This document shows positions 12,295 to 57,180 of a stretch of 64,000 bases of DNA, piece after piece. The translations under genes and the position numbers were made by a program. The notes under the pieces are model-generated. The model ran no database searches, was not told the DNA's origin, and worked only from the letters and a program-made list of their open reading frames with translations. Within the stretch, counting starts at the first letter, position 1; the number at the start of each line of letters is the position of its first letter. The stretch is taken from IMG/VR virus record IMGVR_UViG_3300048575_000193, one strand, 5' to 3'. The DNA is from a virus.

Positions 12295-12386
12295 TGGTGG
12301 GCTCGGAGGGATTCGAACCCTCGTTGGCGGTATTACCCTGCGGCTGGGTTAAAATCAGCTACCTTCGACCACTAGGTGACGAGCCC
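12295..12386 (-). tRNA. Type II tRNA with Tyr-like body and anticodon TTA (ochre suppressor), CCA encoded
   Basis: Acceptor GGGCTCG/CGAGCCC, A73, CCA. D arm ACC/GGT with AGTGG. Anticodon arm GCTGA-TT TTA AC-CCAGC. 20-nt variable arm. T arm GAGGG-TTCGAAT-CCCTC. Confidence 0.9.
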
Positions 12387-52271: not shown

Positions 52272-52355
52272 CGATCCCTCCTACACCAGATCCAGCCAAG
52301 CCTGCCACGCATCGGCGATCTGCTTGTCGGTCAAGGGTTCACCATAGTCGTCACC

Positions 52356-52703: not shown

Positions 52704-53003
52704 TCAGAGGCTCAAGTAGAGCCCGGTTTCACGCTCGAAGAGCCCCTTGAGGCTGTCCGCGTAGATGTCCTTGAACTCGCCCTTGACCTTGCGGCTCGTC
52801 CCTCGAAGGGAGATGAACTCCACCGTGTAGGTGTCGCTCGGGTCAAGCACGATCCGGCAAGCGTTGGCGCCGTTGCGCGCCCGCGCCTTGAACCGGAAGC
52901 TCAGGCTGTTCTCTGAACCCACGAAGTTGTAGGCGCCAATCATGGCAACCATACGGTTGGCGCTGTGTCCGAGTTGCTGGGCGATAGTGTTGGCGACGAG
53001 CAT
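52704..53003 (-). CDS. Hypothetical protein
   Basis: 99 aa from MLVANT. Confidence 0.75.
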   Translation of the reverse strand: MLVANTIAQQLGHSANRMVAMIGAYNFVGSENSLSFRFKARARNGANACRIVLDPSDTYTVEFISLRGTSRKVKGEFKDIYADSLKGLFERETGLYLSL

Positions 53004-53010
53004 GCCCCTA

Positions 53011-53541
53011 TTACGCCGGAGCACCCTCTTGATCAATCCAAAGTGCATCCAGCCGTTGGATTTCCTTCCGGATCACGTCAAGCGCGTCCCCTTCATCCAA
53101 CGTCTCAAGCATGGCTAGGACGCGCCACTTGCCCCCAGACGTGAGGTTCTCCTTGTCGTAGACCGGAACGCCCCACTCGTCGACCGTGTTCGCCCGCTGG
53201 TCATGGGGCTCCGTCATGTAGATGGGCTCGACCTCGTGGCCGTCGTAGACGTAGAACGGGATCTTCGCGTAGGGCGTCCGCCGCCCCACCTTGATCGCCA
53301 TCCACCGGACAAGGGCGAAGATGTACTCACGCTCCCCACCGTAGGCGTTGTAGTCGAACCCGATGGACCGACGCCCGTTGTCGTAGCTTAGCTGTCCCGT
53401 GCGAAGGGGCCTGCTCGCGTAAGAGAACCACCCCGGCTCACCCATGACCTCCGGCCACATGCGGAAGTTCTTGGCGATGAATCGGTACATCTTCTCGAAA
53501 AGCTCTTGGCTCCGAACCGGAGCAGCAACGCTGTATCCCAT
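53011..53541 (-). CDS. Hypothetical protein
   Basis: 176 aa. Confidence 0.75.
   Translation of the reverse strand: MGYSVAAPVRSQELFEKMYRFIAKNFRMWPEVMGEPGWFSYASRPLRTGQLSYDNGRRSIGFDYNAYGGEREYIFALVRWMAIKVGRRTPYAKIPFYVYDGHEVEPIYMTEPHDQRANTVDEWGVPVYDKENLTSGGKWRVLAMLETLDEGDALDVIRKEIQRLDALWIDQEGAPA
53012..53036 (-). promoter_or_regulatory. Class I motif TTGATC-N12-CGGCGTA
   Basis: 8 nt before ATG 53003. Confidence 0.75.
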
Positions 53542-53547
53542 ACTGTC

Positions 53548-53829
53548 CTACCTGTAGGTTGTTGGGTGGATGCCCAAGAGGGCCATCTCCAAGGCATGCA
53601 CCTTTCGGAAGAGGGCGTTGGCGGCCCCTTGAGGTGTCTTGCGGGGAGGCCCTTGTAAGATGAAGCCCTTTTGGCGGAGGGTCCCCTGCCAGGTCTTCTT
53701 CGCTTGGTGGAGGACAACCTCGATCTTGATTCCCCGCACGACCTTGCTGTAGCTCGTCTGCCAACCGGAGAGCTTGGTGCCGTAGTGGAGTTGGTGCCCC
53801 GCGAAGTAGATCAAGCCTGCGGTCTTCAT
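53548..53829 (-). CDS. Hypothetical protein
   Basis: 93 aa. Confidence 0.65.
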   Translation of the reverse strand: MKTAGLIYFAGHQLHYGTKLSGWQTSYSKVVRGIKIEVVLHQAKKTWQGTLRQKGFILQGPPRKTPQGAANALFRKVHALEMALLGIHPTTYR

Positions 53830-53942
53830 GGGCTGCTCAAGTAGGCTGTAATCCCGGCGATGACGAGGGCTAGGGAGATGCCCAAAATGGCGACCACGAT
53901 CATCAATTCGACCAAGGTGAAAGCACGTTGTGGTTTTTGCAT
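53826..53942 (-). CDS. 38-aa type IV prepilin-like peptide (N-terminal methylation helix only)
   Basis: MQKPQRA|FTLVELMIVVAILGISLALVIAGITAYLSSP. Confidence 0.75.
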   Translation of the reverse strand: MQKPQRAFTLVELMIVVAILGISLALVIAGITAYLSSP

Positions 53943-53973
53943 GGTGTGTCTCTGATCTGGTCTACACCGGAGG

Positions 53974-54141
53974 CTACCAGTCGCGAGGCCGCCGCTCCCT
54001 ACGTCGCAAGAGCCACCAAACGAGCTTGACGATCTGCCGGTCGGACATACCGTCGATCTTGAGTCCCATCCAACGAGCAAGGCGCCGGAGCCCATCTGGA
54101 TTCCGACGCCTTGCCTCATTCAAGTCTGTTTTGGTTATCAC
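53974..54141 (-). CDS. Small basic protein (MITKTDLNEARRR..., 55 aa)
   Basis: Read manually, fills the gap, GTG start. Confidence 0.5.
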   Translation of the reverse strand: MITKTDLNEARRRNPDGLRRLARWMGLKIDGMSDRQIVKLVWWLLRRRERRPRDW

Positions 54142-54171
54142 CCGACACAACTACCCCGGATGGGGTATCAA

Positions 54172-54732
54172 CTACTCACGAAGCTTGATCGGCCCTGCCT
54201 TCTTCGTCTTGAATGCCTCTTCCGTGGCGGCGTTCGTCACGATGTCGAACTGGGAGAGGTCCTTCTTGGGGAAGCCCAACGTCCGCGCGACCATGCCCCC
54301 GGGGAACGTCCCAAGCGTGACCTCGTAGACCCGCTTCTTGTCCAAGAGGCTCTTCTGGTCCGCTTCGAAGCTGTTGCGCCCGGCCTCCATGGCTTGCTGG
54401 ATCGAGCGGTAGAGCGACGCGTCGACCGTGGGGTTCTTCTCTTGGATGAACTGGAAGACCGCCTTCGACCCCTCCGCCCCATACCGGCCCTTCATGGCGC
54501 CGTCGTAGAGCTTCTGAAGGTCCGCCGTGTACATGTCTGGAACTTGCGCCATCTCCTTGATCTTGTTGAAGTAGTTGGCGTAGTTGTTCCGATTCTGGTC
54601 ATATTGAGCTTGCAGCCCAGCTTCCTGTCGAATGCAATCGTTATTGACTCCGACGCACCCGCCAATGCCTAGTACGGCAAAGAGGACCACCATCGAGGCA
54701 CACCCGATAAATACCTTCATCCCTGTTGTCAT
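54172..54732 (-). CDS. LemA-like membrane-anchored protein
   Basis: N-terminal TM helix, helical body, ...[19 protein letters not shown]. Confidence 0.75.
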
Positions 54733-55262
54733 GTTGCGGACTCCTCGACTTGTCTACACCGAGCTATTTGACGCATCTTCTCTCGCCACGCCTCGGGTTT
54801 AGGTTTACCCCTACGCGCCAGGCTCATCTTCTCTCGCGTGCTTTCTGATAGCTGTTTACCCTTGTTATTCGGAGGCTTCCCCTTCTTTGCTAGGCTCATC
54901 CTCTGGCGCGTTTCCTCAGAATGGGGGTGCCCTTTACCAAGACGAGCAGATCGTATCTTCGCCCGTGCCTCCGGGCTCTGCTTGTGCCCGGATGTTCCCT
55001 GTCCACCAGCCGTTCGATTGCAACCTATACTGGATTGTCCTGCTAGAGTTCCCAGCGATGTGATTAGGGCTCGCTCCAGGTTGAGCGCTTCAGTCTCAAC
55101 AGATGTGGCCAAAACAACCTGTCTGTTTAAGCCGTATGCACGCGCAATCTCTGCGTGGTTGGCACTCCGCCTTTTGTCTTTCACACGGCTTGCTGTCCCT
55201 TTCCCCACATAAAAGGCTCGAGGATGTGCTTCGATTGTCCAGTCAACATATACGAACCACAT
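54729..55262 (-). mobile_element. GIY-YIG endonuclease with NUMOD3-type repeats (homing endonuclease)
   Basis: FVY...FYVGKG...R...EALNLE...NRTAGG, HSEETRQRMSLAKKG repeats, lower GC than flanks. Confidence 0.85.
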
Positions 55263-55271
55263 AGTCTTACC

Positions 55272-56393
55272 TCAGAAGTAGCGGCGCCTACGGAACCCGT
55301 AGGACCGCCGTTCATCCCCGAAAACATCGTAGCGCTGAAGGATAGCGGTGAGCGCCGCTGCTATGATAAGGCCGATTACGATCGCGACAACAAGCTGCGT
55401 GGTGTTTGGCTTGATGCTCGCCTGGAGGTACTCAAAGTCCTTCATCGGCTTGCGCTTGTAGTACTCCTCTGTCGTGTCATGTAGGACCTTGAGGGTCGCC
55501 CCCGGTGTGATCTCCGGCAGGGCCATGACGGCATCCCGGAGCTTGACCTCGTAGAGCTTCGCGGTGGTCCACGCCATGACTTGCGCCCAGGCAGGCTTGA
55601 GCGATCCCGGCTCGAGCCCTATGACCAAGATGGCGTCGTTCTTCTTGCCTCCAATCCAATCCTCCTCGAGGGCGTAGAACCACTCGGCGGGCTGGTCCGT
55701 GAGGACGACCGCCATGGAGACCTGCTTGCGCGCCCCGATGTCCGCGTTGATCCTCATCAAGCCTTCGTTCCATGCCACGGGGTCCGCTACGTTCACGCCC
55801 TGCAACACCAGCCGGTTGATCTTGTAGTAGTCGTAGATGCGCCTTGGGTAGCTCGGGAGCTTCCCGGCGTACTTGGCCTTAAGCCCCTGGTGCCGAAAGA
55901 GCGTGTCCGGCGCTGCCTTGATGTAGCTCGTGTAGCCATGCGGCCTCGCCGTTGGGTCCGCGACCTTGACCTGTGTCCACCGAGGCGGCTCACCCGTCCC
56001 TTGACGGTCAACACGATCGATCGTGATAGTCTCACGGTTTGATGTGTAGACGTTCCAATCGTAGTCGTGAAGATGCTCGTAACAGGTGTCGCAATGCGTC
56101 GTGGTCGAGCAGGTCTGACTCTTGCCCGACCCGGAGCACGTCGTCACGGGACGGCAGTTGCATTGGTAGGAATGGCTGCAAGATACCGTTTCCCTCTGCT
56201 TGTAGGTGACGAACCCACCCCAGATCTCCACGTCCCCCGTGTTCTTGGAGTAGATGATCCACGCAGAGATACCCGCGACGATGAGCTGGATGCCTACATG
56301 TAGGAGGAATTCCTTCCATGTGATCCCCTTGAGGACCACGAAGGAGAACACGGCGACGGCTACGGGTAGAACCAGCAGGATGAGTAGGGTCAT
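55272..56393 (-). CDS. Membrane protein with large extracytoplasmic Cys-rich domain
   Basis: Two N-terminal TMs, CSHSYQCNC...CDTCYEH, C-terminal TM. Confidence 0.8.
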   Translation of the reverse strand: MTLLILLVLPVAVAVFSFVVLKGITWKEFLLHVGIQLIVAGISAWIIYSKNTGDVEIWGGFVTYKQRETVSCSHSYQCNCRPVTTCSGSGKSQTCSTTTHCDTCYEHLHDYDWNVYTSNRETITIDRVDRQGTGEPPRWTQVKVADPTARPHGYTSYIKAAPDTLFRHQGLKAKYAGKLPSYPRRIYDYYKINRLVLQGVNVADPVAWNEGLMRINADIGARKQVSMAVVLTDQPAEWFYALEEDWIGGKKNDAILVIGLEPGSLKPAWAQVMAWTTAKLYEVKLRDAVMALPEITPGATLKVLHDTTEEYYKRKPMKDFEYLQASIKPNTTQLVVAIVIGLIIAAALTAILQRYDVFGDERRSYGFRRRRYF

Positions 56394-56962: not shown

Positions 56963-57180
56963 GGCGTGGTCCTACACCGGAGGACTTTGAATCTGAAGAC
57001 CCTCTCGGTCTCACACTTCGGGCAATAAGCGCTGATCTCCCATATCCCCGGGGACGGGTTAGGGTTACCGCATTCAATGTCGTAGTCGTCAAAGTGCGTG
57101 GGGACCTTCGCCCGGCAGTACCGGCAGACGTGATTCTTCGGCGCGTTCAACATGACGGTGAGGTCGACTTGTAAGCCCAT
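56959..57180 (-). CDS. Small Zn-ribbon protein
   Basis: CRYC...YCPKC. Confidence 0.65.
   Translation of the reverse strand: MGLQVDLTVMLNAPKNHVCRYCRAKVPTHFDDYDIECGNPNPSPGIWEISAYCPKCETERVFRFKVLRCRTTP

Follow-up and report, generated by a model that had tools for sequence, protein, structure and literature searches.

Type IV pili rank among the major receptors for phages, and they drive motility, DNA uptake and virulence. Their subunits, the prepilins, sit in the inner membrane by the alpha1-N segment and are cleaved on the cytoplasmic side by PilD (PMC13170266). Slower processing by PilD is by itself enough to produce resistance to pilus-specific phages, and membrane pilins that are unassembled or unprocessed act on the sensor kinase PilS, with repression of pilA as the result (PMC13170266), a repression for which the relevant passage of PMC6058289 cites Kilmury and Burrows 2016.

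Full-length viral pilins have been described in F10-like Pseudomonas prophages (P-FimU; PMC12952977) and in the archaeal provirus SNJ2 (PilA1/2; PMC12426801), and protection by P-FimU against tip-binding phages has been demonstrated experimentally (PMC12952977). Virulent Pseudomonas phages encode a truncated P-PilA of ~60 aa (Sztanko et al., bioRxiv 10.1101/2024.03.29.587342; Cell Rep 2026, PMC12952977), for which either co-assembly or a block of assembly has been proposed (PMC12952977). PfsE of the Pf filamentous phages, a protein of ~30 residues, abolishes type IV pili and so brings about superinfection exclusion, by means of an aromatic motif, YAWGW, with which it binds PilC (PMC8764522). 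Lastly, Geobacter has a head-less pilin, PilA-N (GSU1496), which consists of the whole alpha1 helix (~61 mature residues) and assembles into filaments; it lies adjacent to PilA-C, which resembles the beta-sheet C-terminal part of a full-length pilin (PMC5174107).

The phage record and the gene neighbourhood

The locus described here is on the 312,295-bp IMG/VR record IMGVR_UViG_3300048575_000193, of an estimated completeness of 67%, and all positions given below refer to the stretch of 64,000 nucleotides that was analysed, called the window. The gene content of the record is that of a jumbo phage, including tail-fibre-like proteins, a CCA-adding enzyme, a Ro-like RNA-binding protein, a homing endonuclease, an exonuclease and an ochre-suppressor tRNA, and its GC content is uniform (0.57-0.61). 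The prophage framing of the original prediction is not backed: no tyrosine integrase was found in the 312-kb record, a complete phage of 407 kb, with direct terminal repeats, is among the relatives, and the element looks like a virulent jumbo phage instead. It is to be noted that IMG/VR labels the record 'provirus', which is at odds with the missing integrase, the uniform GC and the terminal repeats of the 407-kb relative, and this call may be an artefact. Also missing from the 312-kb record were Peptidase_A24 (the prepilin peptidase), the T2SSE ATPase and the T2SSF platform protein. As the phage record thus carries neither pilus machinery nor the peptidase, a pilin-like product of this phage can act only through components of the host. 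The features of the window that concern us are the following.

12295-12386, minus strand: tRNA with anticodon tta, an ochre suppressor and the only tRNA in the window (ARAGORN)
53548..53829, minus strand: coupled 93-aa ORF, an orphan with no signal peptide (sequence, ATGA overlap)
53826..53942, minus strand: mini-pilin gene, 38 aa (translation, Pfam N_methyl and TIGR02532, codon usage, three contigs)
53943..54171, minus strand: 229-nt spacer from the LemA-like gene to the mini-pilin, with a long hairpin (RNA fold)
53962..53968, minus strand: GGTGTAG box, 19 nt before the mini-pilin ATG (over-represented motif)
53974-54150: doubtful 58-aa ORF with a TTG start, inside the spacer (coding score only 0.08)
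54172..54732, minus strand: LemA-like membrane protein, phrog_1383 (PHROG E 3.6e-60; Pfam LemA weak, E 0.007)
54729..55262, minus strand: homing endonuclease with NUMOD3, phrog_314 (Pfam NUMOD3 E 2.5e-16)
55272..56393, minus strand: 373-aa membrane protein, phrog_2087 (PHROG E 1.2e-102)

Upstream of the mini-pilin, the phrog_2087 and LemA-like genes make up a two-gene membrane module (54172-56393, minus strand; the loci bearing on it are L007-L016, L124 and L200), which is found at 63-78% identity in 10 viral loci. The two genes are adjacent in all 10 of these related loci; the homing endonuclease splits the module in the window and in L008, and is absent from the other relatives. The phrog_2087 family is represented in 500 phage records. 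The module as a whole was seen in hundreds of large phages, among them T4-like Aeromonas phages, Vi01-like phages and Xanthomonas jumbo phages.

Between the module and the mini-pilin lies the 229-nt spacer, which folds better than its shuffled versions (z = -2.64), forming a hairpin of roughly 18 bp, and matched no Rfam family; in place of a gene, this spacer may contain a structured leader or a terminator. The GGTGTAG motif within it occurs 31 times in the window (other copies are at 52281-52287 and 56972-56978, for example) against 4.45 expected, i.e., a seven-fold excess that was reached in none of 100 shuffles. It is phage-specific, and a candidate for a regulatory signal of either the promoter or the translation type.

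A genuine gene of 38 codons

The minus-strand ORF at 53826-53942 translates as MQKPQRA-FTLVELMIVVAILGISLALVIAGITAYLSSP, followed by TGA. Against this peptide, the Pfam model N_methyl (PF07963) scored 34.9 bits (E 9.6e-9; gathering score 21.2 bits) and TIGR02532 scored 28.5 bits (curated cut-off 16.3 bits), whereas the PilA, GspG/H and ComGC models gave weaker matches to its N-terminus and ranked below TIGR02532. In a six-frame search of the 312-kb record the mini-pilin was the sole N_methyl match, at an E-value of 7e-9 per genome, which places the match far beyond chance.

Codon usage was scored as log-odds by a model for which 89 long ORFs from this record served as the training set. The mini-pilin scored +0.44 per codon in its own frame, and -1.5 and -0.25 in the other two; in-frame chunks of 38 codons from this genome averaged 0.55 (sd 0.29), and just 0.2% of off-frame chunks reached 0.44. 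The same open frame extends a further 59 codons upstream, and these scored -0.30, for which reason the ATG at 53942 was taken as the start. The extended ORF of 97 aa, with its ATG at 54119, was accordingly rejected: its extra 59 codons are non-coding by this score, and a leader of 66 residues would be unprecedented. Gene calling yielded this same 38-aa protein, without any difference, on three contigs of up to 341,626 bp, which makes an error of a single assembly unlikely. No classical Shine-Dalgarno sequence was seen before the ATG, and GC3 was 0.68 in the mini-pilin versus 0.80 in its neighbours, a difference that we count against the role in pilus interference considered below.

Taken together, these results confirm that the 38-codon ORF is a genuine gene. 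The description in the original prediction, namely a leader and an alpha1-N helix followed directly by a stop, was exact in translation, and both profile cut-offs were passed; the GGTGTAG box and the coupling to the next gene were likewise borne out, the former lying 19 nt upstream and the latter taking the form of an ATGA overlap.

The prepilin signature and the point at which the protein ends

The N-terminus, MQKPQRA followed by FTLVELMIVVAILG..., has K3 and R6 in a leader of seven residues and then F1, E5 and G14 of the predicted mature peptide, which would run for 31 aa from F1 to P31. The class III prepilin signature is therefore present, i.e., a basic leader, a small residue at -1, Phe1, Glu5 and ~20 hydrophobic residues, and the best 19-residue hydropathy window reached 2.95. 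The residue at -1 is Ala in place of the usual Gly; Ala is also found at this position in natural full-length pilins, as a minority variant. In the mutagenesis of Strom and Lory, Ala at -1 was reportedly cleaved less well than Gly, which would favour a role as a decoy. With Ala there, cleavage of the mini-pilin may be slower than usual or may not occur, which is a point against pilus interference.

The closest full-length pilins are 61-69% identical to the mini-pilin over its 38 residues, and run on beyond its end as '...AYLSSSKAAEAKNNIG...' or '...SYIATAKTAEAK...'. The stop after mature residue 31 falls where the membrane-embedded alpha1-N gives way to the amphipathic alpha1-C, and the amphipathic 'K-T-A-E-A' part of those pilins begins where the mini-pilin ends. 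Consequently, both the alpha1-C and the globular beta-sheet head of a complete subunit are missing. By comparison, 54 complete bacterial ORFs share the same 14 residues at the N-terminus, and every one of them has at least 102 mature residues. As a side observation, four database matches (P0003, P0004, P0006 and P0015) had two complete prepilin N-termini in a single ORF; these metagenomic ORFs are probably tandem pilin genes that were fused by gene-calling or frameshift errors.

The coupled 93-aa ORF and the question of a broken pilin

The stop codon of the mini-pilin overlaps the ATG of the next ORF as ATGA. This ORF of 93 aa has a codon score of 0.54, matched nothing in Pfam, NCBIfam or PHROG, and was itself the sole match among 5.8 billion proteins. 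Neither a signal peptide nor a hydrophobic segment was found in it. Its AlphaFold model (AF2, single-sequence; pLDDT 66) is predicted to have six beta strands and then one C-terminal helix, which is unlike a pilin, since a pilin would begin with the alpha1-C helix; no pilin was among the Foldseek matches of the model, and BLASTP against the best full-length pilin gave an E-value of 0.063.

A frameshifted full-length pilin was considered and rejected. When seven pilins were compared with positions 53000-54200 by tblastn, only the N-terminus was recovered, the best match elsewhere having an E-value of 0.036 in what is a tiny database. No remnant of a pilin head was found in any frame around the mini-pilin, and the 93-aa ORF has no family match and no pilin fold. 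The original prediction had pointed to a full-length pilin in relatives as the sign of such a remnant, and this sign did not appear, as the 10 related loci lack any pilin motif and the 1.2 kb around the gene lack a head remnant. The mini-pilin does not look like a frameshifted full-length pilin. Extension of the protein at its stop codon was also rejected: read-through would meet a second in-frame TGA four codons on and gain only four residues, and the sole tRNA of the window reads UAA, the stop of the mini-pilin being TGA.

It was also observed that the 93-aa ORF begins with M-K-T-A (53826-53832, minus strand), and that K-T-A follows 'YLSS' in the closest pilins. The tripeptide lies in a shifted frame relative to the pilin consensus, and its frequency in this genome is 1.4e-4 per position. 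This coincidence, noticed post hoc, may be a relic of a junction or frameshift inside captured pilin DNA; as such, it bears on the origin of the stub and not on its present role.

Related phages, the variable region and the host

No orthologue of the mini-pilin at 50% identity or more was found among 15 billion proteins. A word-based search of short proteins returned the query alone, and an exhaustive phmmer search against 1.84 billion representatives returned only the N-termini of longer pilins. Scans with the neighbours of 93 aa and 176 aa found no relatives either. Among the related phage loci that share the LemA-like neighbour, none of 10 had the pilin motif, and none of five whole related records had an N_methyl match. 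These negative results in the relatives are credible because the positive controls were recovered, the same N_methyl search finding the single stub in each of Aeh1, PX29, PAK_P3 and ValKK3. In fact, everything downstream of the module is absent from the relatives, i.e., the 58-aa ORF, the mini-pilin, the 93-aa ORF and the 176-aa ORF. The mini-pilin is therefore located in a lineage-specific, variable region, among orphan genes. With no orthologue, there is no conservation of the same short length among related phages, and the gene is known just as an identical copy on three contigs; we have counted this singleton status, and likewise the setting in a variable region, against pilus interference.

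The original prediction had also placed the phage in a myxobacterial setting, for which the evidence proved to be divided. The exact N-terminal 14-mer was found in 58 genomes, including Myxococcota, Planctomycetota, Verrucomicrobiota, Nitrospirota and Proteobacteria, and the whole peptide is equally similar (64-66% identity) to the pilins of Sorangium/Polyangia and to those of Anaerohalosphaeraceae, i.e., to Myxococcota and Planctomycetota alike. The tail of the peptide aligns slightly best with Sorangium and Polyangia pilins, and Ala at -1 is found mostly in pilins of Phycisphaerae and Anaerohalosphaeraceae. A myxobacterial host is possible on this basis but not established.

Comparison with head-less pilins of other phages

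Short pilin-like genes are present in several other groups of phages. Stubs of 28 aa in Aeh1 (Aeh1p044) and 31 aa in PX29 (gp038) are described in GenBank as 'similar to N-terminal part of pilin'. Stubs of this Aeromonas phage family adjoin nrdB, share 75-100% identity across Ah1, Aeh1, avDM12, AsFcp_1/2/4 and PX29, and span two phage genera. The PAK_P3-like Pseudomonas phages have a stub of 59 aa (e.g., PAK_P3 gp139), the KVP40-like Vibrio phages have stubs of 61-67 aa, and a further stub of 63 aa was seen on three IMG/VR contigs. Several short pilin-like families in PHROGs have profile lengths of 59-72 aa, and the Atlas has clusters of 33-39-aa N_methyl proteins, which may include contig-end fragments. 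In the viral contig L124, the gene order is the same as in the window: phrog_2087-like and LemA-like genes and other membrane genes (SPFH-like, TerC-like) are followed by a short pilin-like gene.

We also compared mature lengths between viral and bacterial ORFs, the viral sample consisting of contigs that share one N-terminal pilin pattern and the bacterial set having been chosen by a different one. Among the viral matches listed, 100 ORFs were complete, of which three had a mature length of up to 40 aa, six of 41-70 aa and ten of 71-100 aa; in the bacterial set, none of the 54 ORFs had a mature length of 100 aa or less. Up to 70 aa, the difference was 9 of 100 viral ORFs (among the matches listed) against 0 of 54 bacterial ones (Fisher p = 0.027), and up to 100 aa, with the viral count again taken among the matches listed, it had a Fisher p of 0.00018. 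Short forms were thus enriched in the viral contigs, a result that is only indicative as the two sets were drawn by different patterns.

The mini-pilin is of this kind: it stands in a phage context, is the only N_methyl gene of its record, lacks a head, and is unaccompanied by pilus machinery. The stubs of the other phages are analogous and not orthologous to it, and match it in shortness. Nearest in size are Aeh1p044 and PX29 gp038, which similarly consist of the leader and alpha1-N only and are the sole N_methyl gene of a large phage. The Aeromonas stubs, however, have Gly at -1 and Pro22, lie next to nrdB and are conserved across two genera, whereas the mini-pilin has Ala22-Gly23 and a 'YLSSP' tail, follows the LemA-like module and is a singleton. 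P-PilA of the PAK_P3 type is also phage-encoded and single-copy, with a prepilin leader and alpha1-N, no head, and no pilus machinery in the phage; its proposed role, a block of the pilus or the removal of sites to which phages bind, may by analogy extend to the mini-pilin. Unlike P-PilA, the mini-pilin is 38 aa long and not 59, has no polar tail after the membrane helix, and has Ala instead of Gly at -1; the two are 39% identical, with nothing shared beyond the universal motif, and the Pseudomonas family has orthologues whereas the mini-pilin has none.

The remaining systems differ more fundamentally. PfsE offers the best functional precedent for a protein as small as the mini-pilin, but it is not pilin-like, and its YAWGW motif is absent from the 38-aa sequence. 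Geobacter PilA-N is likewise a type IV pilin without a head, and a coupled gene comes after it too; in the window, however, the mature stalk has only 31 aa, and the partner is unrelated and without a hydrophobic segment or a pilin fold. P-FimU and PilA1/2 of SNJ2 share with the mini-pilin their viral origin, their membership of the pilin family and their use of host machinery, but they are full-length, are incorporated without harm to pilus function and alter the pilus surface. A head-less stub cannot act by such a change of surface. Nonetheless, the premise of the original prediction that phage-encoded pilus components block pilus-dependent phages is sound, having been shown experimentally for P-FimU and proposed for truncated PilA (PMC12952977). 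In summary, head-less phage pilin genes have already been annotated and discussed in print, and the mini-pilin adds to them an example at the short end that has no orthologues.

Possible modes of action

In the reading that we favour, the mini-pilin interferes with type IV filament systems of the host, i.e., with type IV pili and possibly type II secretion. This reading seems to us evenly poised between right and wrong. In its favour are the prepilin signature and the codon usage, the end of the protein at the limit of the membrane segment, the record without pilus machinery, the surroundings without a pilin head, the conserved stubs of other phages together with the enrichment of short forms in viral contigs, and the precedents set by P-FimU, truncated P-PilA, PfsE and the repression of pilA through PilS. 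Interference would be expected because the stub has the stalk of a pilin without the alpha1-C or the head. The 38-aa product would insert into the host inner membrane via its pilin-type alpha1-N helix, where the prepilin peptidase of the host would recognise it and probably cleave it after Ala-1. Three routes may lead on from there: the mini-pilin could enter the assembly platform or the filament and poison elongation; it could occupy the prepilin peptidase (PilD); or it could mimic a full membrane pilin pool, so that a PilS-type sensor would switch pilin expression off. The data do not rank these three routes, nor do they favour a terminator of the pilus over a sink for the peptidase. A peptide that consists of alpha1-N only would retain exactly what occupation of PilD and signalling to PilS require. 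For the phage, the benefit would be fewer pili on the infected cell, such that superinfecting phages would be excluded, or progeny would not be wasted on cells already infected. It should be added that we infer the processing, the target and the phenotype, while the gene, its completeness as a stub and the lack of pilus machinery on the record are direct observations.

A more specific form of this idea, which we put forward tentatively and regard as rather unlikely, is that the ultra-short stubs (28-38 aa) are a distinct class of phage anti-pilus peptides, separate from the forms of ~60 aa and acting purely within the membrane. Such stubs would keep exactly the intramembrane part of the pilin and could serve either as decoy ligands of a PilS-type pilin-sensing kinase or as substrates whose slow turnover blocks the prepilin peptidase. 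Loss of pili, and possibly of type II secretion, would then follow even though no stub becomes part of a filament, and Ala at -1 as well as the lost Pro22 would be adaptations that make the mini-pilin a poor substrate and, thus, a long-lived decoy.

Alternative explanations

Among the alternatives, the one that survives best is a neutral remnant, formed either by recent capture of the 5' end of a pilin gene from the host or by a frameshift or recombination junction that truncated such a gene, and left as a translatable ORF without a selected function. A singleton without orthologues, in a variable region and flanked by orphan ORFs, is what this explanation would lead one to find; the GC3 below that of the neighbours is in line with it, and the K-T-A of the next ORF suggests a junction inside pilin-derived DNA, although no resemblance to a pilin continues past that tripeptide. 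Nevertheless, the ORF starts cleanly at an ATG, resembles the phage in its codon usage and has the ATGA overlap, is identical on three contigs and is cut exactly at the end of the membrane segment, and stubs of the same size have been kept under conservation in other phages. On balance, we consider a neutral remnant unlikely.

The position of the gene, 229 nt downstream of the conserved phrog_2087/LemA-like module, raises the further alternative that it encodes a generic small membrane peptide of a phage envelope-gene cluster, its pilin-type N-terminus being an insertion signal only. Such a peptide might work together with the LemA-like and phrog_2087 proteins, or else be a factor in the timing of lysis. 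The arrangement in L124, where a short pilin-like gene follows the same module among the SPFH-like and TerC-like membrane genes, would agree with this. The mini-pilin, however, has kept more than hydrophobicity, namely the full signature (basic leader, A/F site, Glu5 and Gly14). Moreover, the module occurs without a stub in the 10 relatives and in XacN1, and in Aeh1 the stub is beside nrdB at ~40 kb while the phrog_2087 gene is at ~196 kb. This alternative is therefore distinctly doubtful.

A split pilin of the Geobacter type, in which the 38-aa stalk would join with the 93-aa protein in one subunit able to assemble, for a filament built or decorated by the phage, is very improbable. It is true that the two ORFs are translationally coupled, that their combined 131 aa are within the range of small pilins, that PilA-N and PilA-C of Geobacter are adjacent genes (PMC5174107), and that an archaeal provirus pilin assembling on host machinery exists. 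But the 93-aa protein lacks both a signal peptide and a hydrophobic segment, is predicted to be beta-rich at its N-terminus, where alpha1-C is expected, and matches no pilin in either sequence or fold; the stalk, for its part, is without alpha1-C, while the truncated pilins of Geobacter keep the whole helix. Finally, that the mini-pilin is a chance open frame and not a gene, as its very short length and the absence of a classical Shine-Dalgarno sequence before the ATG might suggest, is scarcely credible in view of the HMM E-values of ~1e-8 per genome, a codon-usage score matched by 0.2% of off-frame chunks and its prediction by gene callers on three contigs.

Implications

If it is true that a bare stalk of ~31 residues switches pili off by interference with the host system, it would be the smallest known inhibitor of the mimic type, and a peptide such as the mini-pilin would be a handy tool or lead. 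The copy in the window is one more independent instance of a phage stub and, being without orthologues, adds little beyond that. Such stubs recur in large virulent phages that are unrelated to one another and infect Aeromonas, Vibrio and Pseudomonas, as well as in several giant phages not yet in culture, and this recurrence suggests a putative common strategy.
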